A stretch of DNA of 20,000 bases. It comes from an uncultured virus (IMG/VR IMGVR_UViG_3300008120_010307) (taxonomy: Duplodnaviria; Heunggongvirae; Uroviricota; Caudoviricetes). The stretch lies in IMG/VR virus record IMGVR_UViG_3300008120_010307. The stretch is one strand, 5' to 3'. Positions 2 to 19,316 of the stretch are shown piece after piece; positions within the stretch are counted from its first letter, which is position 1, and each line of letters begins with the position of its first letter. Under the pieces are notes generated by a model, which worked only from the letters and a program-made list of their open reading frames with translations, was not told where the DNA came from and did not search any database. Position numbers and translations under genes: made by a program.

Positions 2-2023
2 GACACAGGTAATACGGGGGCTCAGGGTGCTGTGGGGCCACAAGGAGCAACTGGTCCGACAGGACTTTCAGGTGCTCAAGGTGCCCAAGGTGGGGTAGGA
101 CCGACAGGGGCTACAGGACCACAAGGAGCTCAAGGACCTGCGGGTAATACGGGTCATTCTGGTGCACAAGGTGCTACAGGACCAACAGGGCCTGGAGGTA
201 ACACAGGTGCTCAAGGGGCGGTTGGACCGAAAGGGGCTACAGGACCTCAGGGAGCTCAAGGACCCGCAGGTGGTACAGGTAACACAGGGGCTCAGGGTGC
301 CACAGGACCACAAGGTTCACAAGGGGCGGGTGGTGGAACAGGTCATCCAGGTGCCCAAGGTCCCCAAGGAGCGATAGGACCACAAGGTTCACAAGGAGCC
401 ACAGGACACACTGGTGCTCAAGGCCCACAAGGTGCCACAGGACCACAAGGCTCACAAGGGGCTACAGGACATCCTGGTGCCCAAGGTAGTCAGGGTGCGG
501 CCGGACCAAAAGGACCTAATGGATTCACAGGTCATCCTGGAGCGCAAGGACCGCAAGGTTCAGCGGGAGCAACGGGTGCTCAAGGTCAGACAGGTCATCC
601 GGGGGCACAAGGTGCAGGTGGACCTACTGGGTCTCAAGGACAAGGGGGTGGTACAGGACATCCTGGAGCTCAAGGTGCCATAGGACCCAAAGGACCTCAA
701 GGACCTACAGGTGCTACTGGCCATCCTGGTGCTCAAGGTGCTGGTGGAGGTACTGGTAACGAGGGGGCACCAGGTTTCACAGGACATCCAGGTGCACAAG
801 GTGCTACAGGACCAGGAGGTAGTCCGGGTGCTCAGGGTTCACAAGGTTCCCAAGGACCTCAAGGAGCTCAAGGAAATACCGGTCCGACCGGCGTACCGGG
901 AGCTACGGGGCATCCTGGTGCTCAAGGAGCGGTCGGTCCAACTGGCCCACAAGGTCCGTCAGGTAATACAGGACATCCTGGTGCACAGGGAGCAACGGGT
1001 CCTACAGGACCTCAAGGAAATACAGGTGCCACGGGTGCTATTGGACCCCAAGGTGCGGGAGGTGCCACAGGCTCACAAGGGGCTGTAGGACCTCAAGGAG
1101 CAACTGGAGCCACAGGAGCCCAAGGTCCACAAGGTCCAGGTGGTCCTACAGGACCTGGCGGGGCACAAGGTGCTCAAGGAGGAGGAGGTGCCACAGGACC
1201 TCAAGGACCACAAGGTCCAAAGGGACCTCAGGGTGCTACAGGTCCTACAGGGGGTCCTGGTCCAACTGGACCACAAGGTCCTCAGGGACCAACAGGAGCA
1301 CCTGGACCTACAGGTGCCACAGGACCACAAGGTCCTACAGGTGGTCAAGGTACACAAGGCTCATTAGGTGCAACAGGAGGGCAGGGTGCTCAAGGTTCCC
1401 AAGGAGCTGTTGGACCTGGAGGTGTAACATGTCAACTGAATAGTATTATTGCTCTTACAGGAAGTAGAAACCCATGTGTAGGTGTTTGTAATATCACTGT
1501 ACCCAACGTTTATCCATACACTCAAACTGCTTACACAGCCACACAAAACAAATATTTCGATGCTACGAATTGTTCAAATGGTACTTGTGATTGGAATACT
1601 TATAACTGGGAACAATGGAATAGTGCATGTTATTCATTAAACGCCACTTGTGGTAATGGTACCTATCAGCAGGCTTGTGCTTATTCTGACGTGAAACTTA
1701 AAACAGGTATTGAAACCTTGAAAGATTCTCTTATAAAAATATTGGAAATAGAAACTGTTGAGTATGATTGGAACGAAAAAAATTGGGGTACCAAAGAAGA
1801 GTATGAATATTTTGCTCAGATGGGAAGATTACATCAGATAGGTCTAATTGCACAAAACGTAAGAATTCATTTCCCTGAAGCTGTTGGAATCGGTCCTGAT
1901 GGATATTATTACATTGACTACAAGAAATTAAATTCTGTTGTAGTTGAAGGTATAAAAGAACAACAAGTATTTATTGAAGAGATAACTAAACAAGTAGACG
2001 AATTAGAAATTAAATTGAGATAA
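2..2023 (+). CDS. Collagen-like phage fibre protein 1 (5'-truncated by the window) with Cys-rich head and C-terminal S74-type intramolecular chaperone
   Basis: Frame is open from base 2 ([12 protein letters not shown]...), so the GTG at 32 is not the true start. Uninterrupted Gly-X-Y runs to about 1429 and an 8-Cys segment spans 1430-1684. It is followed by [10 protein letters not shown]...EYDWN...IGLIAQNV...FPEAV...IDYKKL...EGIKEQQ, the S74 chaperone pattern. Confidence 0.9.
8..1429 (+). repeat. Coding Gly-X-Y repeat with a 7-triplet (63 nt) super-period marked by GHP
   Basis: His-containing triplets fall at positions 14, 35, 42, 49, 56, 63, 70, 77, 84, 98 and 105, counted from nt 35. Confidence 0.9.
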
Positions 2024-5007
2024 TGCCATCTAATGTAATTATATATCCTACCGGTAGAACGTGGAACACTGACCCTCATTTTATTTTTGATGATGGAACT
2101 AATAAATTACAATTCAACGTTTTAACTGACGCAATAAGTCTGTCTGCTGGGTCAATTTCAAATAATTTTGTAATTGGTACAAAAGGTTCAGACAATGGTG
2201 TCACAACCTCAGGGGCTTCCGCACAGTCACTATATTTCAACGCCTCACAATTCATAGGTTCTGGAGGTGTTTGGGTCGGACCAACTGCCGGTATCGCTGG
2301 TGCTCAGGGAGCTCAAGGTGCTCAGGGAGCCCAAGGTGGTCAGGGAGCTCAAGGAGCTCAAGGTGCAAATACAGGAGCTCAAGGTGCTACAGGTGCCCAA
2401 GGAGCAACAGGCGCACAAGGTGCGGCAAACACAACACAAGGTGCTCAAGGTACAATTGGGTCTCAAGGAGCTCAGGGTGCCACAGGAGCTCAGGGTGGAA
2501 ATACGGGTGCTCAAGGAGCCACAGGAGCTCAAGGTAACCAAGGAGCTCAAGGTGCTCAAGGAGGAACAGTTGGAGCTCAGGGTGCTCAGGGTGGTCAGGG
2601 AGCTCAAGGTGCTCAAGGTGCTCAAGGTGCAAACACAGGTGCTCAGGGTGCGACAGGTCCCCAAGGAGCCCAAGGAGCGGTAGGTGCTACAGGAGGAGTT
2701 CAAGGTGCTCAAGGTGCCGTCGGTGCCACAGGTGATTTAGGTGCTCAGGGAGCTCAAGGAGCCAATACCGGAGCCCAAGGTGCTCAAGGTGCACAGGGAA
2801 CTCAAGGTGCACAAGGTGCTCAGGGAGGAAATACTGGTGCACAAGGTGCTCAGGGTACTCAGGGTACACAAGGTGCTACAGGTGCTCAAGGAGGAGTACA
2901 AGGTGCTCAAGGTGCTATAGGTACTACAGGACCACAAGGTGCTCAAGGGGCCCAAGGGGCAAACACAGGAGCTCAAGGTGCTCAAGGTGGTCAAGGTGCT
3001 CAAGGAGCTCAAGGTGCTCAAGGAGGAGTACAAGGTGCTCAAGGGGCTACAGGTCCTACGGGGGTACAAGGAGCACAAGGTGCACAAGGAGGAGTACAAG
3101 GAGCACAAGGTGCAACAGGACCTCAAGGAGCTCAAGGGGCTCAGGGATTACAAGGTGGACTTCAAGGTGCCCAAGGTGCAACAGGTGCTCAAGGTGCACA
3201 AGGTTCTACAGGTGCTCAAGGAGGTACCCAAGGAGCTCAAGGTGCCACAGGACCACAAGGTGCACAAGGAGCAATAGGAGCTCAAGGAGGAGTACAAGGT
3301 GCTCAGGGTGCAACAGGAGCAGCGGGAGCTCAAGGTGCTCAAGGAGCCCAAGGTGCAAATACAGGTGCTCAAGGCGCCACAGGACCTCAAGGTGCTCAGG
3401 GGGCGACAGGAGCCCAAGGGGGTGTACAAGGTGCTCAAGGCGCCACAGGTCCTCAAGGTGCTCAAGGTGCTCAGGGGGCTCAAGGTGCAAATACAGGAGC
3501 TCAGGGTGCTACAGGTCCTCAAGGTGCTCAAGGTGCTCAGGGAGCCCAGGGTGCCAGTCCAGGTGCTCAGGGCGCTCAAGGTCCAAAAGGACCTCAAGGT
3601 GCTCAAGGAGCCCAAGGTGGAAGTGCAGGTGCCACGGGTGCGCAAGGTGCAACAGGTCCTCAAGGAGCTCAAGGTGCCCAAAGTGGTATAACAGGACAGG
3701 CAGGAGCTCAGGGTGCTACAGGTCCCCAAGGGGCACAAGGTGCTCAAGGTGGAAGTGCCGGTGCTACAGGAGCAGTCGGTGCACAAGGAGCTACAGGAGC
3801 ACAAGGAGCCCAAGGTGCTAATCAAGGAGCACAAGGTGCTACGGGTGCTACAGGAGCTCAAGGTGCTCAAGGTGCTCAAGGTGCTAATCAAGGAGCCCAA
3901 GGTGCGACAGGTCCACAAGGTGCTCAGGGTTCACAGGGTGCACAAGGTGCTAATCAGGGAGCACAGGGGGCTCAAGGAGCTCAAGGTGCTCAAGGTTCTC
4001 AGGGAGCACAAGGAGCCAATCAGGGTGCACAAGGTGCTACAGGTCCACAAGGTGCACAAGGTGCAATTGGACCAAATAATACGACACAAGGTGCTCAAGG
4101 TGCTCAGGGAGGTCAAGGTACTCAGGGAAGTCAAGGAGCACAGGGTGCTAACCAAGGCGCTCAAGGGGCACCTGGAGTTCAAGGAGCTCAAGGAGCACAA
4201 GGTGCACAGGGTGCTAATCAAGGGGCTCAGGGAGCACCTGGAGTTCAAGGAGCTCAAGGTGCTCAAGGTTCTCAAAGTGCTACTTCGGGAGCACAAGGTT
4301 CTACAGGACCTCAAGGTGCTCAAGGTTCTACAGGACCCGGTCCTGGTCCGCAAGGAGCCCAAGGTCCACAAGGATTGACTGGAGGTGGAGGGAACACAGG
4401 TGCACAAGGGTCCCAAGGAGCTACAGGAGCCACGGGTCCTACAGGTGCTCCTGGTGGAACAGGAGCCACAGGTGCTCAAGGAGCCACAGGATTTGCTGGA
4501 AGCACTCAGGGTGCTCCAGGTGTACCAGGACCACAGGGGGCTCAAGGTCCGACAGGTGTTGGTGGTGCCACAGGCCCAACAGGCCCAACAGGTTTCAAGG
4601 GGAATACAGGCCCAACAGGCCCAACAGGTGCCACAGGTGCTCAGGGAGCACAAGGCGCTAAGTCAGATAAAAGATTAAAAGATAATATAGTTGAATTCAA
4701 AGAACCTCTCACCCGTCTGAAACAAATCCAAGGTGTTAAATTTACTTGGGACCATGAACATCCTAAAATTAAATTTCATAAGCACCTGAATGCTAAAGAA
4801 GCGTTCACAGGTGATACTTATGGATTCATAGCTCAAGATGTAGAAAAAGTATTTCCTGAGATTGTTGACACTGACCCAACTGATGGATACAAATCTATGG
4901 ATTATGGACTCTTGGTTAGTTTAGCCTTCGCATCAATTAAAGAGAATCAAAAAAGAATATTGTCAGTGAAAGATAGAATAAATAGATTAAAACAAGTAGT
5001 GAACTAA
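2023..5007 (+). CDS. Collagen-like phage fibre protein 2 with periodic interruptions and C-terminal S74-type chaperone
   Basis: TAATG overlap with the upstream gene. About 90 aa N-domain, Gly-X-Y region 2290-4662, then SDKRLKDNI...FTWD...[16 protein letters not shown]...MDYGLL. Confidence 0.92.
2290..4662 (+). repeat. Coding collagen repeat with a 22-aa (66 nt) unit: six triplets plus one 4-residue unit
   Basis: Units end in GANT, GGNT, GGTV, GGVQ, GASP, GGSA or GANQ every 22 residues through most of the region. Confidence 0.9.
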
Positions 5008-8000
5008 TGGCATCATACGTAGTATATTCAGGGACGAGTTATCTAAATGCGTGTAATTCTGTGGCATCACAGACTATTTATACACCGTGTCCATCACTAA
5101 GTGGAGGTTGTGTAGTCTATACAGATGCAGGTTATACTAATGTTATTACTTTCTCTCCATTATTACCTAATTTATATCTAAAGGATTCTGTTGATACAAC
5201 GGTTTGGAAGATAAATAGGACAGGAACTGTCACGGAGGTTAGAAAATGTACTGAATTTTCAGGTGATGAAAATATAATTGTTTATCCTGATGGAGCCAAT
5301 TTTCAACTTATAGATTCTGGAGGAACTGCCACTAACTGGTATATGGAGAATGGTGAGTTGAAATTTGGAACTTTAACTTCCACTTTAGCAAGAATAAGTA
5401 CTTCCTATCCAAACCTCAGAGTCAGTGGGGGGTCAATAACACTTACTAACAAACTTGCAAATGCCTCGGGAGATTTAATAAATTCAACAGGATGGGTCGG
5501 AGCTAAATTACCTCAAGGTCCAACGGGTGCTCAAGGTTCACAAGGTTCTACTGGTGCTCAAGGAGCTCAAGGGGGTCAAGGAGCACAGGGTACCCAAGGT
5601 TCAACAGGTGCCCAAGGTTCTCAGGGTGCTCAAGGGGGACAAGGTGCTCAAGGTGCTCAAGGGTCACAAGGACCTACAGGTGCACAAGGTTCACAAGGTG
5701 GTCAAGGTTCACAAGGCTCACAAGGTTTTACAGGTGCTCAGGGTTCACAAGGAGCTCAAGGAGGACAAGGTGCTCAGGGTTCACAAGGAACTTTGGGACC
5801 CACAGGAGCTCAAGGTTCTCAAGGTGGTCAAGGAGCCCAAGGAGCCCAAGGTTCAACAGGTGCTCAAGGTTCGCAAGGAGCACAGGGTGGACAGGGCGCT
5901 CAAGGTTCACAAGGGGCTAAAGGTCTCACAGGTGCTCAAGGGGCACAAGGTGGACAAGGTGCCCAAGGTGCTCAAGGTTCCCAAGGTACAACAGGAGCCC
6001 AAGGTTCCCAAGGGGGACAAGGTGCTCAAGGTGCTCAAGGCGCAGTTGGTCCTACAGGTGCTCAAGGAGCTCAGGGTGGACAAGGGGCTCAAGGAGCTCA
6101 AGGGGCTGTCGGTCTCACAGGAGCTCAAGGAGCTCAAGGTGGGCAAGGTGCTCAAGGAGCACAAGGGGCTCTCGGTCCTACAGGAGCTCAAGGTTCCCAA
6201 GGTGGACAGGGTGCTCAAGGAGCACAAGGTTCACAAGGTTTAACAGGTGCGCAAGGGTCCCAAGGTGGTCAAGGAGCTCAAGGAGCTCAGGGAGGACAAG
6301 GTGCTCAAGGTGCCCAAGGTCCTAAAGGTCCACAAGGTGCTCAAGGAGCCCAAGGTGCTCAAGGTTCAACAGGAGCCCAAGGTTCCCAAGGTGGAACAGG
6401 AGCCCAAGGTGCTCAAGGTTCAACAGGAGCCCAAGGTTCACAAGGTTCACAAGGTGGAACAGGAGCCCAAGGTGCTCAAGGTTCAACAGGAGCCCAAGGT
6501 TCACAAGGTTCCCAAGGAGGACAAGGTGCCCAAGGGGCTCAAGGTACAACAGGTGCCCAAGGAGCTCAAGGAGCTACAGGAGGTCAAGGTGCTCAGGGTT
6601 CTCAAGGACCCACAGGAGCCCAAGGTTCTCAAGGTGCCGGAGGAGGACAAGGTGCACAAGGAGCTCAAGGTATAGTTGGAGCCCAAGGTGCTCAAGGTGG
6701 AGGTGGAGGACAGGGTGCACAAGGAGCACAAGGAACGACAGGTCCCGTAGGTGCACAAGGTTCACAAGGTGGGCAAGGTGCTCAAGGTTCCCAAGGTGCA
6801 CAAGGTGCCACAGGAGCTCAAGGTTCTCAGGGCGTCGCCGGAGCTCAAGGTGCTCAAGGTGCTCAAGGAGCTGTTGGTAGTCAAGGTTCACAAGGAGGAC
6901 AGGGTGCACAAGGAGCTCAAGGTTCACAAGGAGCTCAAGGTGCAACTGGTCCTGGTGGCGGACAAGGTGCTCAGGGAGCACAAGGAGCCACAGGTTCACA
7001 AGGTGCTCAAGGTGGAGGTGGTGGACAAGGTGCCCAAGGTGCTCAAGGGCCCGTCGGTTCACAAGGTTTTCAAGGAACAACTGGAGGTCAAGGTGCACAA
7101 GGTGCGCAAGGACCTACTGGACCTACAGGTATCACAGGACCTAAAGGGGGTCAAGGTGCACAAGGTGCTCAGGGAGGACAAGGTGCACAGGGACCACAAG
7201 GTCATATCGGTGCAAACGGTGCAACTGGTGTTCCTGGTCCTATTGGTCCCAAAGGACCTACGGGTCCTACGGGAGGTCAAGGTGCTCAAGGAGCTCAAGG
7301 ACCTGGTGGTGCTCAAGGGGCTCAAGGTCCTACGGGAGGTCAAGGTGCTCAAGGAGCTCAAGGACCTGGTGGTGCTCAAGGGGCTCAAGGTCCTACGGGA
7401 GGTCAAGGTGCCCAAGGTCCCAAAGGTCCAATAGGTGGACAAGGTTCTCAAGGTCCCACAGGGGCTCAGGGTACCGCCGGAGGACAAGGTTCTCAAGGCG
7501 GTGGTGGTGCCCAAGGTGCTCAAGGTGCTCAAGGTCCGCAAGGAGGCCAAGGTGCTCAAGGCGGTGGTGGTGCCACAGGAGCTCAAGGACCTCAGGGGGG
7601 TCAAGGTGCCCAAGGACCACAAGGTGGTCAAGGTCCACAAGGTGCACAAGGTGCAACCGGTCCAAATGGTTTACAAGGTGCTCAAGGTGCACAAGGTACC
7701 ACTGGTTCTGACCTAAGATTAAAAAAGGACGTAAAAGAAATACAATCCCCACTAGAAAAAGTCCTGAAATTGAGAGGTGTTTCATTCTATTGGAATAAAT
7801 TAAATGATGAAACATCCCAATCAGGTAAACATGATATTGGATTCATTGCCCAAGAAATAGGTCATATATTACCTGAATTGGTTTTCAAGAAAAACACCGA
7901 GAACGCATATTTCATGGTAAAATATGCTGAAGTAATAGCTGTTTGTTTAGAAGCCATTAAAGAACAATCCTTGATTTTGGAATCTAAAGAAATAAAACTT

Positions 8001-8042
8001 GATGAGTTAGAGACAATAGCCAAGGAAAGAGGACTTATTTAG
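5007..8042 (+). CDS. Collagen-like phage fibre protein 3 with N-terminal Cys domain and C-terminal S74-type chaperone
   Basis: TAATG overlap. 170 aa N-region, 243 Gly-X-Y triplets (5517-7703), then SDLRLKKDV...FYWN...IGFIAQEI...LPELV...VKYAEV...EAIKEQ. Confidence 0.92.
5517..7703 (+). repeat. Coding Gly-X-Y repeat with a 7-triplet super-period marked by GGQ
   Basis: GGQ at triplets 7, 14, 21, 28 and onward. The 2187 nt equal exactly 243 triplets. Confidence 0.9.
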
Positions 8043-12843: not shown

Positions 12844-13059
12844 ATGGGTTTCAATAAAAGATACGTGGATTCAAAAAATAGTATTTTCGCACTCGAATCT
12901 AATAATCTTAAAGGTTATTATGGTAAAAGCGATGCATTGATTTTCGAAGATTCTTTAAGTTCGAAAATTTACGACCTATACAAAGAAGGTAAGTCTGACA
13001 AAGAAATTTTATCAATTATAAACCAAAACATGGAGGAAAAAACCAATGAAGTGTATTAA
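12844..13059 (+). CDS. Hypothetical protein (71 aa)
   Basis: First ORF after the promoter and part of a tightly packed run. Confidence 0.7.
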   Translation: MGFNKRYVDSKNSIFALESNNLKGYYGKSDALIFEDSLSSKIYDLYKEGKSDKEILSIINQNMEEKTNEVY

Positions 13060-13291
13060 ATCAATCAAGGAAACCAAAGATGTTGCTCTCGGAACAATTA
13101 GGAGAGTCGAAGACAAAGTTGCAAACAACATGGTAGGTAACTATTGGGCTTACGTTTCTAAATCTGAGTGGAAAAAAGAAACAAGAAAATCCAAACCTAC
13201 CGAACAGGAAACTGAACAAGTTACTGAACAAGTAGAAAAGAAACCGTATAAAAAAGGACAACGTTCCGAAAAACATAAAAACAAAAAATAA
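13046..13291 (+). CDS. Basic hypothetical protein (81 aa)
   Basis: Lys-rich ORF with TAATG coupling to the next gene. Confidence 0.7.
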   Translation: MKCIKSIKETKDVALGTIRRVEDKVANNMVGNYWAYVSKSEWKKETRKSKPTEQETEQVTEQVEKKPYKKGQRSEKHKNKK

Positions 13292-13506
13292 TGGCAGAAG
13301 TAAAAAAACATTTAATCAAAATGCTTGAGCTTGAAGCTGAAGCACAGAAAGCCAAAGCTCTTCTAACTTTGGAACTATTATCTAACCACGCGGCAGGAAT
13401 AGGCGACCATTCAACAGGAGATTTCTACAAAAATGCAGAAGAAGCTCTACAAATGTTGGTTGACGCTGATGATAAACTTGAAGCGATAAAAAAATATTTT
13501 CTATGA
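13291..13506 (+). CDS. Hypothetical helical-hairpin phage protein with GIGDH motif
   Basis: Two amphipathic helices around AAGIGDHS. Coupled to neighbours by TAATG and ATGA overlaps. Confidence 0.75.
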   Translation: MAEVKKHLIKMLELEAEAQKAKALLTLELLSNHAAGIGDHSTGDFYKNAEEALQMLVDADDKLEAIKKYFL

Positions 13507-13709
13507 AAAGATTTACTATAACAGGTGTGAGAACTATCGATGAATATGTTACTTATACTGTCGAAGCGGAAACTGAAGATGAAGCAATTGAGATGGTTGA
13601 GAATGGTGAAGTTGATGATAACGATGACCATTGGCAACGTGAAACATCAGGAGGAGAAGATTATACCGTTACTAATGTTGAAGAATTAGAAGAAGATGAA
13701 GAAGAATAA
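13503..13709 (+). CDS. Small acidic hypothetical protein
   Basis: ATGA overlap. Contains VEAETEDEAIEMV, a pattern common in small phage proteins. Confidence 0.7.
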   Translation: MKRFTITGVRTIDEYVTYTVEAETEDEAIEMVENGEVDDNDDHWQRETSGGEDYTVTNVEELEEDEEE

Positions 13710-13827
13710 ATTTTTCAAAAAACTTGAGTGGTATTTTGATTACTACGTTGCCTATTTTCTCTACAATGGAAACAAACAAGACAGATACGTGCAGTACATG
13801 CAAAAAAAGTGGGGAGATAGAAAATAA
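13696..13827 (+). CDS. 43-aa aromatic-rich micro-protein (absent from the ORF track)
   Basis: Translates as MKKNKFFKKLEWYFDYYVAYFLYNGNKQDRYVQYMQKKWGDRK*. It fills the gap before the sulfotransferase domain. Confidence 0.6.
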   Translation: MKKNKFFKKLEWYFDYYVAYFLYNGNKQDRYVQYMQKKWGDRK

Positions 13828-13834
13828 TTATGGG

Positions 13835-14425
13835 CTGAATATTTCAGAGGAACACAAAACTTTTCTTTGGTTGTGGGCTAAAACCGGCACATCCCATTTG
13901 AAACAAAATATGAAATATTTTGGTTTCAATTTTTATATGTTCGATGGCGGTAAAAGAAGTTTTTTATCTAAAGGAATCACTCAGCAACACACTTGTCAAT
14001 TATTTGAAGGGCACCATGATTATAAGATGTTAGCTACGGCTAGAAATCCCTACTCAAGATATGTTTCTTTCTATATAATGGCAAAAAAGGATGAAGCAAC
14101 AATCGAAAATTTTGATGATTTTTTAGAAACACAAATATTTCATCATACAAATTTCGATTGTGTAACTTTTCACGATAGAATCCCTGATTATTTTGTTAGA
14201 GTTGAAAATTTATTCGAGGACTATTCCAAAATTCCTTTCGTTGTTAAAAGTGATTATTATAAATCAGGACTTTTGGAAGAATTTTGTAATAAAAAAATAA
14301 ATAAATCAAAGTTTGAAGTTGATTGGAAAGATTATTATAATCAATCAATGGCTGATTTAGTTTTTTATAACACTCAAAATTATTTTGAAATCTTAGGTTA
14401 CGATAAAAATTCTTGGAAAAAATAA
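13835..14425 (+). CDS. Sulfotransferase-family protein (Sulfotransfer_2-like); start uncertain (ATG 13766, CTG 13835, or out-of-frame ATG 13830)
   Basis: 5'-PSB-like LWAKTGTS, 3'-PB-like ARNPYSRYVSFY, DYFVRVENLFED, and C-terminal WKDYY...FEILGY. Confidence 0.8.
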   Translation: MNISEEHKTFLWLWAKTGTSHLKQNMKYFGFNFYMFDGGKRSFLSKGITQQHTCQLFEGHHDYKMLATARNPYSRYVSFYIMAKKDEATIENFDDFLETQIFHHTNFDCVTFHDRIPDYFVRVENLFEDYSKIPFVVKSDYYKSGLLEEFCNKKINKSKFEVDWKDYYNQSMADLVFYNTQNYFEILGYDKNSWKK

Positions 14426-14431
14426 AAATAT

Positions 14432-14656
14432 ATGAATACTGAAATGGTCAATGGACCGATTCACTACGGTGGTGCGGATAATCCTTATGAAGTGATTAAA
14501 GTTTGTGAAGCGTGGGGTTTGGATAAGGACGCATATTTGTTCAATGTTGTAAAATATATTGCTCGTGCCGGTATCAAAGACCCCTCTAAAGAACTCGAAG
14601 ACCTTAAAAAGGCTCAATTTTATTTGGATAGAAGAATTAAAAATTTGGAAAAATGA
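14432..14656 (+). CDS. DUF3310-family protein (SaV / T7 gp1.7 nucleotide kinase-like)
   Basis: MVNGPIHY...EVIKV...NVVKYIARAGIK...EDLKKAQFYL signature. Confidence 0.85.
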   Translation: MNTEMVNGPIHYGGADNPYEVIKVCEAWGLDKDAYLFNVVKYIARAGIKDPSKELEDLKKAQFYLDRRIKNLEK

Positions 14657-15093
14657 TTATTTGGCTAACAGGTCAACCTGGTTCGGGTAAAACAACTATC
14701 TGTGAACAGATTATGTCTATTCACACAGAGTTTTTCCATGTTGATGGGGATGACCTAAGAGATTTATTTGACAATAAAGATTACTCTAAAACAGGTAGAA
14801 GAAAGAATATTGAACTTGCTCAACAAATATCTCAATATCTTCACAACCAGGGAGTTGATGTTTTAGTATCTTTAGTTTCCCCATATAAAGACCAAAGGGA
14901 TAGGTTCAAGGAAAAGATGGGGGATGATTTGAGAGAAGTCTACGTTCATACATCAGAAAAAAGAGGTAGAGAACAATTCTTTGTTAAAGAATACAATGAA
15001 CCAACAGAAAACTATCTTGAGATTGATACAACCAATGAAAGTATAGTTGAGTCAGCAAAAAAAGTTTTAGATTATGCGAAAAATTCACGTTGA
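14653..15093 (+). CDS. cysC: Adenylyl-sulfate (APS) kinase
   Basis: IIWLTGQPGSGKTT P-loop, VDGDDLR, DYSKTGRRKNI, VSLVSPY, EVYV and YNEP...IDT. Confidence 0.85.
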   Translation: MIIWLTGQPGSGKTTICEQIMSIHTEFFHVDGDDLRDLFDNKDYSKTGRRKNIELAQQISQYLHNQGVDVLVSLVSPYKDQRDRFKEKMGDDLREVYVHTSEKRGREQFFVKEYNEPTENYLEIDTTNESIVESAKKVLDYAKNSR

Positions 15094-15475
15094 GGGTGAC
15101 CCGAAATTAAAAAATACTGGAGGTAAGCAATATTCTATGTTTGTGGGACGGTTCCAACCATTTCACGGGGGACATCGATGGATTGTGGATGAATGTCTGA
15201 ACGAAGGAAAAAATGTTTTAATTTGTATAAGAGATATTCAACCTGATGATAAAAATCCTTTTAGTGCTCAAGAAGTTGAATCCAATATCAAAAAAGAGTT
15301 GTGGAAATATTTGACCGACGAGAAAGTAAAAGTTATGATTATACCTGATATCGAATCTGTCAATTTTGGTAGAGGTGTTGGTTATGATATAATCGAACAC
15401 ATACCACCTCAAGAGGTTGGGGAGATATCTGCAACAAAAATTAGAGAAGAATTAAAAAAAGAAGGAAAATTATAA
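15074..15475 (+). CDS. HIGH-superfamily (cytidylyltransferase-like) nucleotidyltransferase
   Basis: GRFQPFHGGH, KNPFS and a C-terminal ISATKIR. Confidence 0.85.
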   Translation: MRKIHVEGDPKLKNTGGKQYSMFVGRFQPFHGGHRWIVDECLNEGKNVLICIRDIQPDDKNPFSAQEVESNIKKELWKYLTDEKVKVMIIPDIESVNFGRGVGYDIIEHIPPQEVGEISATKIREELKKEGKL

Positions 15476-16329
15476 TGCAAACTAATAAGATATATCAAGG
15501 TGATTGTATCGAGGTTATGAAAACATTTCCCGAAAATTCAATTGACCTCATAGTAACATCTCCACCCTATGGTGTAGGAATCGATTATGACACTTTTGAA
15601 GACGACATCCCTTTTGAAGATTATAAATTGTTTTCAACAAACTGGATGACAGAAGCTTTCAGAGTGTTGAAGGAAGATGGGAGAATTGCTTTGAACATTC
15701 CCTATGAAATAAATCGTCAGAGTCAGGGTGGAAGAATTTTCATGGCATCAGAACTTTGGCAGATAATGCAAAAAATTGGATTCAAGTTTTTTGGGATTGT
15801 TGACCTCAAAGAAAATTCTCCTCATAGGAGTAAAACCACCGCATGGGGTTCTTGGATGTCACCATCCGCACCGTACATTTACAACCCCAAGGAGTGTGTT
15901 ATTTTGGCGTACAAGAAAAACCACATAAAGAAAGTAAAAGGTCAACCAGAGTGGGTAGGAATCCCTGAGGAGGTCACCAACGAAGAGGGAAAGACCCGAA
16001 CTAAAATGATGTATACTGAAGAACAGAAAAGAGAGTTCATGGATTTAGTTTACGGGGAGTGGGATTATTTTGCCGACACGAAACAATTGACAAAGGCAAC
16101 ATTTTCATTAGATATTCCTTTAAAGGCAATAAAAATTTTAACTTATAAAAATGATTTGGTTCTTGACCCTTTTGCTGGTAGTGGAACAAGTTTGGTTGCT
16201 GCAGTTATTTCCGACCGTAATTGGATTGGTATCGAGCTTAGTGAAAACTACTGTGGAGTCGCTCAAAAACGAGTACAACATTTCATAGATAAAAAAAACC
16301 AACCTGAACTTGATTTTGAAAAGGGGTAA
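15475..16329 (+). CDS. DNA methyltransferase, N6_N4_Mtase beta class (SPPY suggests N4-cytosine)
   Basis: GDCIEVM, DLIVTSPPY catalytic motif, and VLDPFAGSGTS...IGIEL SAM-binding motif. Confidence 0.92.
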   Translation: MQTNKIYQGDCIEVMKTFPENSIDLIVTSPPYGVGIDYDTFEDDIPFEDYKLFSTNWMTEAFRVLKEDGRIALNIPYEINRQSQGGRIFMASELWQIMQKIGFKFFGIVDLKENSPHRSKTTAWGSWMSPSAPYIYNPKECVILAYKKNHIKKVKGQPEWVGIPEEVTNEEGKTRTKMMYTEEQKREFMDLVYGEWDYFADTKQLTKATFSLDIPLKAIKILTYKNDLVLDPFAGSGTSLVAAVISDRNWIGIELSENYCGVAQKRVQHFIDKKNQPELDFEKG

Positions 16330-16342
16330 TACCCCTTTTTTT
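16319..16342 (+). terminator. Intrinsic terminator
   Basis: AAAAGGGGT-AAT-ACCCCTTTTTTT overlapping the methyltransferase stop codon. Confidence 0.75.
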
Positions 16343-16352
16343 CTTTTCAGTA

Positions 16353-16360
16353 TATTTATA
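16353..16360 (+). promoter_or_regulatory. TATTTATA putative phage promoter motif
   Basis: Directly after the terminator and 14 nt before the ATG at 16375. Confidence 0.6.
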
Positions 16361-16374
16361 ATTAAATTATTTTG

Positions 16375-16746
16375 ATGACTGAAGAATTGATAAAGAAACT
16401 CGTTCAGATGCAACTTCAATGGAAGTTTTTACATTGGCAAACTTTTGGGGATGCTAAACACAGAGTTTATGGAGAAATTTACGATGGTTTAGGTGACCTG
16501 ATTGATGAGTTTACTGAAACCATGATGGGAAAGTATGGTAGACCTAAGTTTGATGATGAGTTTGCTTTGATGTTTCAAGATATATCAAGTCTCAGTATTC
16601 AGAACTTTGTCGATGGAATAGTTGAATTTTTGGTTTCTATGTCTGAAGAATTGGACCCAAAATACGATACTGACTTGTTGAATATCAGAGATGAGATGCT
16701 CGGATTGATAAATAAATCAAAATTCCTTTTAACACTTAAATACTAA
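16375..16746 (+). CDS. Ferritin/Dps-like four-helix protein (DUF5856-like)
   Basis: FLHWQT...AKHRVYGEIYDGLGDLIDEFTETMMGKYGR...LLNIRDEML. Confidence 0.8.
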   Translation: MTEELIKKLVQMQLQWKFLHWQTFGDAKHRVYGEIYDGLGDLIDEFTETMMGKYGRPKFDDEFALMFQDISSLSIQNFVDGIVEFLVSMSEELDPKYDTDLLNIRDEMLGLINKSKFLLTLKY

Positions 16747-17111
16747 TGAAGAAAATTGTCAGACTTACCGAAACAGATTTGGAAAGAATCGTAACAAGGG
16801 TTATAAATGAACAAAATGAAACAAGAAGTTTCATTAGAGCAATACAAAGATTTTTAATTGATAAAAAAATTACCGGAGACAATAAAAAACCTCTAACCGT
16901 TGACGGTAGAACTGATAATAATTTGACCTCTCAAACGGCACAGGCAATATCAAAATACCAATCTATGATAGGAGTTTATCCTGCGGATGGAGTTTGGGAA
17001 ATAAATACTTGGGAGAAAATGCCGAAGGAAGACCAAAAAAAGTTAAAAAAACTGATGGCTGAAGAAGGTGACATTTTCGATAAATTCTTACATTGGATGG
17101 GTTGGGATTGA
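16746..17111 (+). CDS. Peptidoglycan-binding-domain protein with N-terminal LTExDL leader
   Basis: IRAIQRFL...LTVDGR...TAQAISKYQSMIG...ADGVW...T resembles PG_binding_1. Confidence 0.7.
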   Translation: MKKIVRLTETDLERIVTRVINEQNETRSFIRAIQRFLIDKKITGDNKKPLTVDGRTDNNLTSQTAQAISKYQSMIGVYPADGVWEINTWEKMPKEDQKKLKKLMAEEGDIFDKFLHWMGWD

Positions 17112-18505
17112 TGAAAAAAATTTTAAAAGAAACAGGTATAAGAGACATTTCGGCTTTGAGGAAGAGATATCCCAAAGCCGAAATTTATTTTCACCAAGAC
17201 TTAGACGGTGTCACTACCGCTATAGCGATGAAAAAATATCTTGAGGACAATGGGATTGAAGTTGTTGGTGCACATATAATTCAATATGGTGACAAAGAGT
17301 TTGCTGTAAAAAAAAATGATGCCGAAGGTGACACGATGCCTGTGCTAGTCGATTTTGCTCACGGGAAGCCGATGTTTAAAATTCACACGGACCACCACGA
17401 TAAACAAGTCGGTGCTGAAAAAGAAACATCCAAATCATTTAGACAAGCTCGTTCTAACGTTGAAACAATATCTCAAATTGTTTCACCTAAAGATTTATTT
17501 CCATCTTCAGACATACGTTTGATAAGCACTGTTGATTCTGCAGATTTCGCTAGAAATGAAATTACTCCCGAGGATGTAATAAATTACATTTTTAGATTTG
17601 ATAAAGAGAAACCTCTACAAAAGAACAAAATGCTTTTGGGATTGGTTATAAATAAACTTATTTTAGCCTTCAAGAACAGACGTGGGTTTATGGAAAATCT
17701 TGTAATGGATTCTGAGCCATCTCTGCTTTCGATTCTCACGAACATAAGAAAGTGGATGAAAGAAACAGGGGCTGAACAACCCGAAAAATTACAATCCCAT
17801 TCTCAAGATTATTCACAAAGAATGAAATCTTATCATGGTTTGGAAGTAGATGGGAGTATTTTAACTCAGTACGGTGGTGGGGATATGAGGAAAGCAGGTT
17901 CCTATGATAGGTACACCCCATTCAAGAACAATCCTGATGCGGATTTTTTGATTATGATTTGGCCTATGGGATTGTTACAAGTTTCGTGTAATCCATTCAA
18001 AAAAGATAGAGAACTCAAAGGTGTGAATCTCGGAGAAATTGCCCAAGAGGTTTTATCAAAATGGAAAGATAAATTACAATCAAGGGTAATACCCCTATCA
18101 ACAATCAAATGGATTAGTGAAACTTCGGTGAATCCTGAAAGTGTAGGTTTCACATTTAAAGATTTTGATGCTCTTTATGGTGGTAAAATTCAATATATGC
18201 AAGGTGGTAAAGAAATTTTGTCACAAATAAAGGAAATGATGAACAAACCTTTTGTTAAACTTACGGATGAAGAAAAAAATATTTTAGACAAATTAGGAAT
18301 CAATGCTTGGGAACTACTTCAGTCCATGTCAGGTGGACATAAATGTATTACAAACATAAGTGGTTTAAATTATTTAGGTAGAAGTAAGAGACCGCCTGAA
18401 GGGAACTATAGATGGGACCCTGAAAAGGAAGATGCTCCATACATTAAATTTCTTAAAATGTTAGCATCAGAATTCAAAAAAACATTGAAATCCAAAATTC
18501 ACTAA
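17111..18505 (+). CDS. DHH-superfamily phosphoesterase-like protein
   Basis: YFHQDLDG, LVDFA, HTDHH, TVDSAD and a late SGGHK (DHHA1-like GGH). Start taken at the ATG at 17111 via a TGATG overlap. Confidence 0.8.
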   Translation: MKKILKETGIRDISALRKRYPKAEIYFHQDLDGVTTAIAMKKYLEDNGIEVVGAHIIQYGDKEFAVKKNDAEGDTMPVLVDFAHGKPMFKIHTDHHDKQVGAEKETSKSFRQARSNVETISQIVSPKDLFPSSDIRLISTVDSADFARNEITPEDVINYIFRFDKEKPLQKNKMLLGLVINKLILAFKNRRGFMENLVMDSEPSLLSILTNIRKWMKETGAEQPEKLQSHSQDYSQRMKSYHGLEVDGSILTQYGGGDMRKAGSYDRYTPFKNNPDADFLIMIWPMGLLQVSCNPFKKDRELKGVNLGEIAQEVLSKWKDKLQSRVIPLSTIKWISETSVNPESVGFTFKDFDALYGGKIQYMQGGKEILSQIKEMMNKPFVKLTDEEKNILDKLGINAWELLQSMSGGHKCITNISGLNYLGRSKRPPEGNYRWDPEKEDAPYIKFLKMLASEFKKTLKSKIH

Positions 18506-18905: not shown

Positions 18906-19316
18906 ATGAAAAAAAGTTATGCGGGTGTAGTGGTAAAACACAAAAAGAAAATTTTATTTTGTAAAAGAAGTTCTAAAGTAGATTATCCAGGTGTTTGGTC
19001 AATTCCTGGAGGTACAATGGAGGAAGGCGAGTCTCCCATCCAAACAGCACGTAGAGAGTTTTTTGAAGAAATGGCTGTTGACATAGATAGTGAAACATTA
19101 AACAAAGTTGGTGTGATTCCAAGATATTCGAGAGACGGTAAGAAGTTGAAGGGTCAGATGCATGTCTTTGAGACAGAACCAATTGAAAAACTCATTCCTG
19201 ATTTATCAATTGCGATTGATGGTGAAGAACATACTGAATGTGGTTATTATACTCTCGAAGAAATGCCCCCTTCCAAAATTGGAGAGAACCTATACAATCT
19301 TTTAAAAAATATGTGA
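18906..19316 (+). CDS. NUDIX hydrolase
   Basis: WSIPGGTMEEGESPIQTARREFFEEMAV Nudix box. Confidence 0.92.
   Translation: MKKSYAGVVVKHKKKILFCKRSSKVDYPGVWSIPGGTMEEGESPIQTARREFFEEMAVDIDSETLNKVGVIPRYSRDGKKLKGQMHVFETEPIEKLIPDLSIAIDGEEHTECGYYTLEEMPPSKIGENLYNLLKNM

Follow-up and report, generated by a model that had tools for sequence, protein, structure and literature searches.

A putative miniature PAPS-synthesis pair beside a divergent sulfotransferase in a large freshwater phage

Introduction

We know of two enzyme types in the textbook account of sulfate activation, Sat and CysDN. In bifunctional synthases of 3'-phosphoadenosine-5'-phosphosulfate (PAPS), namely animal PAPSS and the bacterial and fungal Sat-CysC and CysN-CysC proteins, the enzyme forming adenosine-5'-phosphosulfate (APS) is coupled or fused to an APS kinase, in either order. 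The nodPQ-nodH and raxPQ-raxST loci, which we take to be dedicated bacterial sulfation clusters using CysDN-type or Sat-type sulfurylases, and the sulfated-polysaccharide clusters combine a local PAPS supply with sulfotransferases. Here we describe a candidate phage counterpart in a 20,000-nucleotide stretch of DNA from an uncultured virus (IMG/VR record IMGVR_UViG_3300008120_010307), the whole of which is called the window below. It encodes, close together, a compact CysC-like APS kinase (KIN), a 133-residue HIGH-motif nucleotidyltransferase proposed to be a minimal ATP sulfurylase (NT), and a minimal PAPS-type sulfotransferase (ST).

A viral precedent comes from Moumouvirus. In the accessible part of PMC10117803, its proteins Ma457 and Ma461 are described as a SAT/APS kinase and a sulfotransferase within a glycosylation cluster, and viral glycan sulfation is predicted, though not yet validated. 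This virus, too, encodes both PAPS synthesis and a sulfotransferase, with genes for glycans as neighbours. The hosts of Moumouvirus are eukaryotes and its enzyme is a canonical bifunctional SAT/APSK of ~640 aa (PMC10117803, same part), whereas the pair carried here by a phage is split, miniature, and not of the Sat type. The function of phage sulfotransferases was called unclear in 2023 (PMC10580990, in the text available), and phage cysC is read as an auxiliary sulfur-assimilation gene in the available text of PMC10914622. A literature search, with subscription journals outside its coverage, found no account of an NMNAT-like ATP sulfurylase or of a phage module joining PAPS synthesis and a sulfotransferase.

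Results

KIN and NT form a recurrent and often fused pair

KIN (146 aa; 14653-15093, + strand) and NT (133 aa; 15074-15475, + strand) overlap by 20 nt in different frames and match opposite ends of one PHROG profile, phrog_10255 (KIN at positions 2-89, NT at 134-229 of 230). At least 595 stretches of viral contigs encode NT, and of the 80 loci kept for context counts, 79 (all but L149) have an APS-kinase open reading frame (ORF) immediately upstream of NT. HMMER searches against 1.84 billion cluster representatives gave 487 NT matches at E ≤ 1e-10, the best 150 of which were taken for a domain count. Among these 150, the APS kinase domain (PF01583) occurs in 35 of the 50 NT relatives of at least 190 aa (25 kinase first, 10 NT first); the other partner domains in those 50, DUF2061 and DUF6717, were seen once each and none recurs. 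A search among longer proteins returned 59 NT relatives, many of which are APS_kinase-NT fusions. Co-occurrence and fusion, named by the earlier sequence-only reading of this DNA as a check on its proposal, are therefore both found.

A scan of a genome collection with a narrower NT alignment gave 24 loci, 23 of them with an NT-like ORF. The kinase is adjacent or fused in 19 of the 23, and the remaining four are one contig-edge copy, one fragment, and two weak archaeal matches. Partner kinases exceed the apsK equivalog cut-off in 11 of 13 cases tested (e.g., 276.7 and 263.1 against 138.7 bits). Structure prediction of a KIN and NT complex returned a score of 0.00, which counts neither way.

Additional sequence is found at or near the KIN-NT junction in some loci. 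A gap of ~0.8 kb separates the two genes in L022 and L104, and ORFs of ~280-320 aa (P0136, P0138, P0149, and P0152) have an N-terminal part that resembles an HNH endonuclease by eye only; Pfam assigns the NT domain alone (PF01467) to P0136, P0138, and P0149, and nothing to P0152. The ~320-aa 'fusions' of the P0138 type were rejected as functional fusions, as their N-terminal part, again judged by eye, resembles an endonuclease ORF of the HNH type that continues by read-through into NT. Such N-terminal parts suggest that a homing endonuclease has entered the space separating the two genes. In L110 (9660-9998) and seven other loci, a gene for a 113-aa HAD-like phosphatase, a candidate pyrophosphatase or phosphatase of 3'-phosphoadenosine-5'-phosphate (pAp), stands between KIN and NT, and a marine Bacteroidota genome has an additional 132-aa CTP_transf_like ORF between kinase and NT (L164:495-890). 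In 41 of 114 NT loci, among them L143 (8514-8732), the gene after NT encodes a small membrane protein with a DUF2061 domain (only the cluster representative is annotated); the domain is fused to NT in one cluster representative (P0255) and might have a sulfate-handling role. P0120 (237 aa), known from one 2.4-kb contig only, has a C-terminal FeS_assembly_P (DUF59) domain attached to an NT domain that shares 77% identity with the window's.

Bacterial clusters and the distribution of known sulfurylases

NT is also found in bacteria. On a 590-kb Flavobacteriales contig (L158), CysC (276.7 bits), NT, a DeoC-like gene, and CysQ (261.6 vs 228.8 bits) are followed by a Wzx-like flippase, three sulfotransferases, and a Wzy-like protein, and the L162 cluster is much alike. 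CysQ acts on pAp, the PAPS by-product. A Patescibacteria locus (L155) encodes an ABC-2 exporter, KIN, NT, a glycosyltransferase, and a Sulfotransfer_3 protein; in Saccharibacteria (L165), Sulfotransfer_3 precedes a KIN-NT fusion.

Five bacterial genomes from three phyla that encode CysC and NT contain no member of PF01747 (Sat) or PF01507 (CysD or CysH), in searches whose controls were positive. One of the five is a 4.5-Mb chromosome, and in three of them the pair is accompanied by sulfotransferase genes. Of 301 Flavobacteriales genomes sampled, 10 have NT, 128 APS kinase, 202 CysD, and 1 Sat. The kinase adjoins NT in all ten NT-positive genomes, none of which has CysD or Sat; CysD is present in 116 of the 118 kinase-bearing genomes without NT, the two exceptions showing truncated kinase matches only. 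Nine of the ten NT-positive genomes give the nine highest kinase scores. The complementarity of NT with CysD or Sat among the 128 CysC-bearing genomes has a Fisher p value of 2.9e-13, which overstates independence and counts few independent events, since the ten NT-positive genomes are probably close kin. The argument from missing enzymes gains independence because other phyla among the five genomes also lack both PF01747 and PF01507.

Further enzymes are encoded in the marine Flavobacteriales clusters. A DeoC-type aldolase gene lies between NT and CysQ (L158:10483-11190; L162:10539-13762), and L162 has two aldehyde-dehydrogenase ORFs likewise between NT and CysQ.

NT is a reduced relative of archaeal NMNAT

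NT matches CTP_transf_like (PF01467; 30.3 bits, cut-off 21) and gave no PF01747 (Sat) match in the Pfam scan. Its best NCBIfam matches are models of archaeal nicotinamide mononucleotide (NMN) adenylyltransferase (NMNAT) and NadM, all below their cut-offs (PRK01153, 41.5 vs 127 bits; TIGR01527, 38.4 vs 181.2 bits). With these enzymes (PDB entries 1f9a and 2qjt) it shares GRFQPFHxGH and ISxTxIR: the window's NT reads GRFQPFHGGH and retains the HxGH and ISATKIR motifs of adenylyltransferases. Residues invariant in the NT family are G25, R26, H31, H34, R53, P62, G99, R100, G103, S119, A120, T121, and R124. NT has 133 residues only and lacks a PUA-like domain, and the alignment of its family profile with NMNAT is confined to profile positions 11-81 and 90-135. 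Residues 77-109 of NMNAT (chain 1f9a; about 33 residues), which we take to be the middle segment carrying the NMN and nicotinamide contacts, have no counterpart. The invariant GR.VGY loop of NT (G99-R100) sits in the short unaligned stretch where this segment is missing, and R53-D54 of its IRD motif faces Gly-Ser in the aligned NMNAT.

The AlphaFold (AF2) model of NT has a pLDDT of 91.5, and its best fold matches are NMNAT (Z 10.3, 29% identity), phosphopantetheine adenylyltransferase (PPAT; Z 10.1), and NadM (Z 9.4). The model also superposes on the catalytic domains of ATP sulfurylases: Thermus thermophilus Sat (1v47), Z 7.7 over 117 residues; 1j70, Z 6.2; and PAPSS1 (1x6v), Z 5.9. The likeness to Sat, which comprises the HIGH-type HxxH (H31 and H34) and the catalytic-domain fold, is at superfamily level only. 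NT is NMNAT-like by descent and lies outside the Sat family, and the caveat of the sequence-only reading that NT is NMNAT-like holds for both sequence and fold.

KIN is a compact APS kinase

KIN matches PF01583 at 64.7 bits (cut-off 21.1), covering profile positions 4-112 of 152 only. In an alignment with three canonical CysC proteins its P-loop, DGD..R, YS..GR..NI, and SP...R motifs are invariant; DGD..R, (F/Y)S..(D/G)R..NI, and SP...R are presumably the APS-site motifs. The deletion of the lid in KIN is also seen in other compact kinases (L152, L155, and L114). Compact kinases likewise adjoin NT in bacteria, and L155 has a Sulfotransfer_3 gene close by as well. We take the window's KIN to be a compact, lid-less APS kinase that would still act on APS.

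ST is a divergent sulfotransferase

ST is encoded in an ORF at 13724-14425 (+ strand). The sequence-only reading placed its start at 13835, where the codon is CTG; the start is probably the ATG at 13766, giving a protein of 219 aa (13766..14425) whose catalytic domain corresponds to 13835-14425. Close homologues share the 'METNK...' N-terminal extension that translation from this ATG provides. A 43-aa ORF in another frame over this conserved extension (13696-13827, + strand) is probably no gene.

Searched alone, ST has no Pfam, PHROG, or NCBIfam match, none to a sulfotransferase model (PF00685, PF03567, or PF13469) even at E ≤ 10, and no PDB sequence match, and its identity had therefore to be shown through family and fold. 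Among 139 candidates, 119 homologues were found at E ≤ 1e-3. Sulfotransfer_2 (PF03567) is matched by 14 of 32 aligned family members (best E 1.6e-6), and Sulfotransfer_1 (PF00685) by 10. The window's ST contains a KTGTSH loop, which we take to be the 5'-phosphosulfate-binding loop (PKxGTT-like, with Lys) of PAPS-dependent sulfotransferases; it is kept in most of the 32 members, with Arg replacing Lys in the most distant. H52, R70, N71, and P72 are invariant and S78 nearly so, giving the motif R70-N-P-Y..R..S78. Its R70...S78 span is presumably the 3'-phosphate-binding motif R-x7-S of these enzymes, which has a conserved His upstream, and H52 is a candidate catalytic base.

The ST family profile retrieved 12 PDB matches at E ≤ 10, of which 10 are sulfotransferases, all weak (best E 0.035). 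They align over the RNP..S motif, and RNPY..lvS.y pairs with the 'ARNPKDCLVSYYHF' stretch of SULT1C3. With the AF2 model of ST (pLDDT 93.2), Foldseek found nothing at E ≤ 0.001, its top match being a sulfotransferase at E 0.013. In the VIA exhaustive fold search, ranks 1-22 are all sulfotransferases (Z 9.2-6.6), led by heparan sulfate 2-O-sulfotransferase (Z 9.2, 173 residues aligned), and the alignments cover up to 184 of 196 residues. Family matches, motifs, and predicted fold together argue that ST is an intact, minimal, and very divergent sulfotransferase; the sequence-only reading had also named it a sulfotransferase. At syntenic loci, ST is 36-51% identical to that of the window (except in the near-identical contigs L001, L002, and L055), whereas KIN and NT are mostly 58-85% identical; ST therefore evolves faster.

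Sulfotransferases beside the pair

KIN-NT occurs in 42 of the 79 loci found with the ST family, mostly in the gene order of the window. Conversely, a sulfotransferase lies in the examined flank of 38 of the 80 NT-seeded viral loci; where both flanks reach at least 7 kb, the count is 17 of 27. These sulfotransferases span at least three families: the A1 type (the ST family), Sulfotransfer_3/1, and Sulfotransfer_2. A 273-aa Sulfotransfer_3/1 type is found in 17 NT loci, Sulfotransfer_2 types directly adjoin KIN-NT in L142 and L148, and an unrelated lineage (L062 and L063) has the order 2-oxoglutarate (2OG) oxygenase, sulfotransferase, KIN-NT fusion. A search of 50,697 cultured phage records for two sulfotransferase types found them in 0 and 10; enrichment beside KIN-NT is therefore large, though the two collections differ. 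The oxygenase gene immediately upstream of the sulfotransferase and KIN-NT fusion in L062 (9341-9997) encodes a 2OG-Fe(II) enzyme.

Genomic evidence on the fate of PAPS

A related viral record of 317 kb is rated 100% complete. It contains no member of PF01747 (Sat) or of the PAPS_reduct family PF01507 (CysD, CysH), and five A1-type sulfotransferase copies; three partial viral relatives have no PAPS reductase family member either. One of the five copies adjoins a UDP-galactopyranose mutase, two GT2 genes, and a hexapeptide transferase, and other phages repeatedly have glycosyltransferases and a sugar epimerase in the vicinity of KIN-NT; because of these neighbours, gene context favours a glycan as the acceptor. 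KIN and NT most likely feed sulfation rather than assimilation. The sequence-only reading had proposed modification as the purpose, and the complete relative without a reductase and the sulfotransferases beside NT support it. Another feature of the 317-kb record is an in-frame TGA in one of the five copies (G007:C1:136320-136952).

The gene run and its flanking genes

The five ORFs flagged by the sequence-only reading are all present on the + strand and tightly packed. A 6-nt gap separates the ST ORF from a DUF3310 gene (14432-14656; PF11753, E 1.3e-12), whose stop codon overlaps the start of KIN in an ATGA, and NT overlaps by 1 nt a gene for an N6/N4 DNA methyltransferase (MT; 15475-16329; N6_N4_Mtase, PF01555, E 4e-32). 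The order is not due to chance, because it is found again in many related viral contigs. In the distant relatives L069, L077, and L078, DUF3310 is directly followed by MT with no KIN-NT between them, and KIN-NT therefore looks like an inserted cassette. For the same reason DUF3310 and MT were rejected as members of the module, and there is no support for counting them as part of the system or for reading them as a sign that DNA is what is sulfated. The PHROG label of the DUF3310 families is 'nucleotide kinase'.

Downstream of the run, window positions 17093-18505 (+ strand) encode a 470-aa protein with a weak DHH match (E 1.1e-3, below cut-off) and DHH and GGH motifs visible by eye. It had no PDB sequence match, and its Atlas matches were limited to viral clusters of hypothetical proteins and a weak lead to DHHA1. 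Most relatives, also the ones that lack KIN-NT, keep the protein in synteny; it could be a pAp phosphatase or nanoRNase removing the sulfotransferase by-product. A NUDIX hydrolase gene follows at 18906-19316 (+ strand). In two Patescibacteria genomes, a NUDIX-domain protein of ~600 aa is encoded directly upstream of a KIN-NT fusion (L169:3368-5236; L170:5777-7549).

At the other end, the window begins with large collagen-like tail-fibre ORFs (2-8042), followed by three minus-strand genes and then a long plus-strand run. The three consecutive collagen-like ORFs (+ strand; >673 aa, 994 aa, and 1011 aa) have a GC content of 45-60%, against about 28-37% in the remaining window. The source is a large freshwater phage, and a genome of about 300 kb is suggested because partial relatives of 60-77 kb are rated 21-26% complete. 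No match to window positions 13000-17000 was found among phage records in a DNA similarity search, and a tRNA scan of the window found none.

Discussion

We consider it likely that NT, KIN, and ST form a three-gene phage sulfation module, with DUF3310 and MT as flanking genes only. NT (15074-15475), a minimal enzyme descended from NMNAT, would adenylylate sulfate, forming APS and pyrophosphate from ATP and sulfate. KIN (14653-15093), translationally coupled to NT, would phosphorylate APS to PAPS, pulling the unfavourable first step forward, and ST (13766-14425) would use PAPS to sulfate an acceptor, most likely a glycan that is produced or modified in the course of infection. KIN-NT would then be a mobile two-gene 'PAPS synthase' cassette, wide in phages and replacing CysDN or Sat in some bacteria. 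The sequence-only reading had suggested that the 133-aa protein completes the path from sulfate through APS and PAPS to a sulfated product. Comparative genomics strongly supports this: the fusions with APS kinase, the CysQ and sulfotransferase neighbours, and the complementarity with CysD and Sat all point to formation of APS by NT.

Several observations weigh against this interpretation. With a 44-member NT profile, archaeal NMNAT structures are found in the PDB at E 1.5e-14 and no ATP sulfurylase chain at E ≤ 1, and by fold NMNAT and PPAT outscore Sat. KIN scores 69.9 bits against the apsK equivalog model TIGR00455, below the cut-off of 138.7, and lacks ~24 residues of the mobile lid segment (RDxKGLYxKAR). 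The link to sulfotransferases is incomplete: 37 of the 79 ST-seeded loci have no KIN-NT in the flanking sequence examined, no sulfotransferase was recognised in that of 42 of the 80 NT-seeded loci, and L069, L077, and L078 have a sulfotransferase, DUF3310, and MT with KIN-NT absent. Four NT-bearing viral records (17-68% complete) yielded no A1-type sulfotransferase, in a search with the A1 profile only, and in cultured Xylella, Xanthomonas, and Stenotrophomonas phages the fused gene stands amid hypothetical and DNA-metabolism genes with no annotated sulfotransferase. Completeness is unreported for most of the bacterial genomes, and the probable kinship of the NT-positive Flavobacteriales reduces the weight of their number.

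The descent of NT raises the alternative that it is an ordinary adenylyltransferase for NMN, or for nicotinic acid mononucleotide, in phage NAD salvage, its pairing with a kinase being NadR-like or mere adjacency. Archaeal NMNAT and NadM are indeed its best sequence and fold matches, GRFQPFHGGH and ISATKIR are both present, and a NUDIX gene lies 3.4 kb downstream. Yet all NMNAT models score it far below their cut-offs, and the segment equivalent to NMNAT residues 77-109 is gone. The partners of NT are true apsK equivalogs in 11 of 13 cases tested, its neighbours are CysQ and sulfotransferases rather than NAD genes, and it is complementary to CysD and Sat; a role in NAD salvage is very unlikely. 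That the product of KIN-NT is a different compound, 3'-phospho-adenylylated or nucleotide-linked, or that the pair has nucleotides or DNA as substrates, with no relation to ST and with DUF3310 and MT reflecting nucleotide metabolism or counter-defence, would fit a kinase that is lid-less and below the equivalog cut-off, the many NT loci with no recognised sulfotransferase nearby, and the 'nucleotide kinase' label of DUF3310. It would also fit Xylella phage Salvo, where the genes on either side of the fused gene encode a hypothetical protein and an annotated DNA topoisomerase and a MazG-like gene stands ~1.6 kb upstream. We nevertheless find it improbable, given that the NT family is fused to full-length canonical APS kinases, that compact kinases adjoin sulfotransferases in L155 and L062 too, that bacterial clusters hold CysQ, and that KIN-NT looks inserted between DUF3310 and MT.

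The pair may instead make PAPS as an auxiliary supply that boosts assimilatory sulfate reduction in the host for cysteine, ST being a separate accessory. This agrees with the published reading of phage cysC (PMC10914622, in the text available); host CysH could use PAPS, and many NT loci have no sulfotransferase nearby. The genomes speak for sulfation: the PAPS reductase family was found neither in the complete 317-kb relative, with its five sulfotransferase copies, nor in the three partial ones, and no PAPS_reduct member occurs in the five CysC and NT bacterial genomes, three of which have sulfotransferases beside the pair. With sulfotransferases enriched beside KIN-NT as well, we regard an assimilatory role as unlikely.

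The proposed sulfation module resembles described systems in plan and differs from them in its sulfurylase. Like bifunctional PAPS synthases, it couples or fuses an APS kinase, in either order, to the putative APS-forming enzyme, whose model superposes on the sulfurylase domains of PAPSS1 and T. thermophilus Sat. Unlike them, NT is a core of ~115 residues from the archaeal NMNAT branch, with no PUA-like domain and no PF01747 match, and the window's kinase is lid-less. From archaeal-type NMNAT and NadM it is set apart by its sub-threshold scores, the lost middle segment, the GR.VGY loop and IRD motif, and a partner that is an APS kinase. The bacterial NT clusters, with CysQ, a flippase, and a polymerase, recall nodPQ-nodH, raxPQ-raxST, and the sulfated-polysaccharide clusters; NT, in genomes without CysD or Sat, stands in the place of the sulfurylase.

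There is a reasonable probability that the NT family is a third, hitherto unrecognised class of ATP sulfurylase, with a core of ~115 residues derived from an archaeal-type NMNAT. In marine Flavobacteriales with streamlined genomes, in Patescibacteria, and in some Acidobacteria it would have ousted CysDN or Sat, and it would be spread by phages as a two-gene or fused mini PAPS synthase, so that many 'phage cysC' genes drive glycan sulfation. If this is true, a third, miniature sulfurylase supplies the step so far lacking in bacteria whose genomes encode CysC, CysQ, and sulfotransferases but no known sulfurylase, and offers a very small tool for PAPS production. Hundreds of viral 'cysC' genes would have to be reread in sulfur-cycle surveys, where they are now usually taken for assimilation genes (PMC10914622, in the text available). 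It would also suggest a concrete role for phage sulfotransferases, the sulfation of glycans during infection.

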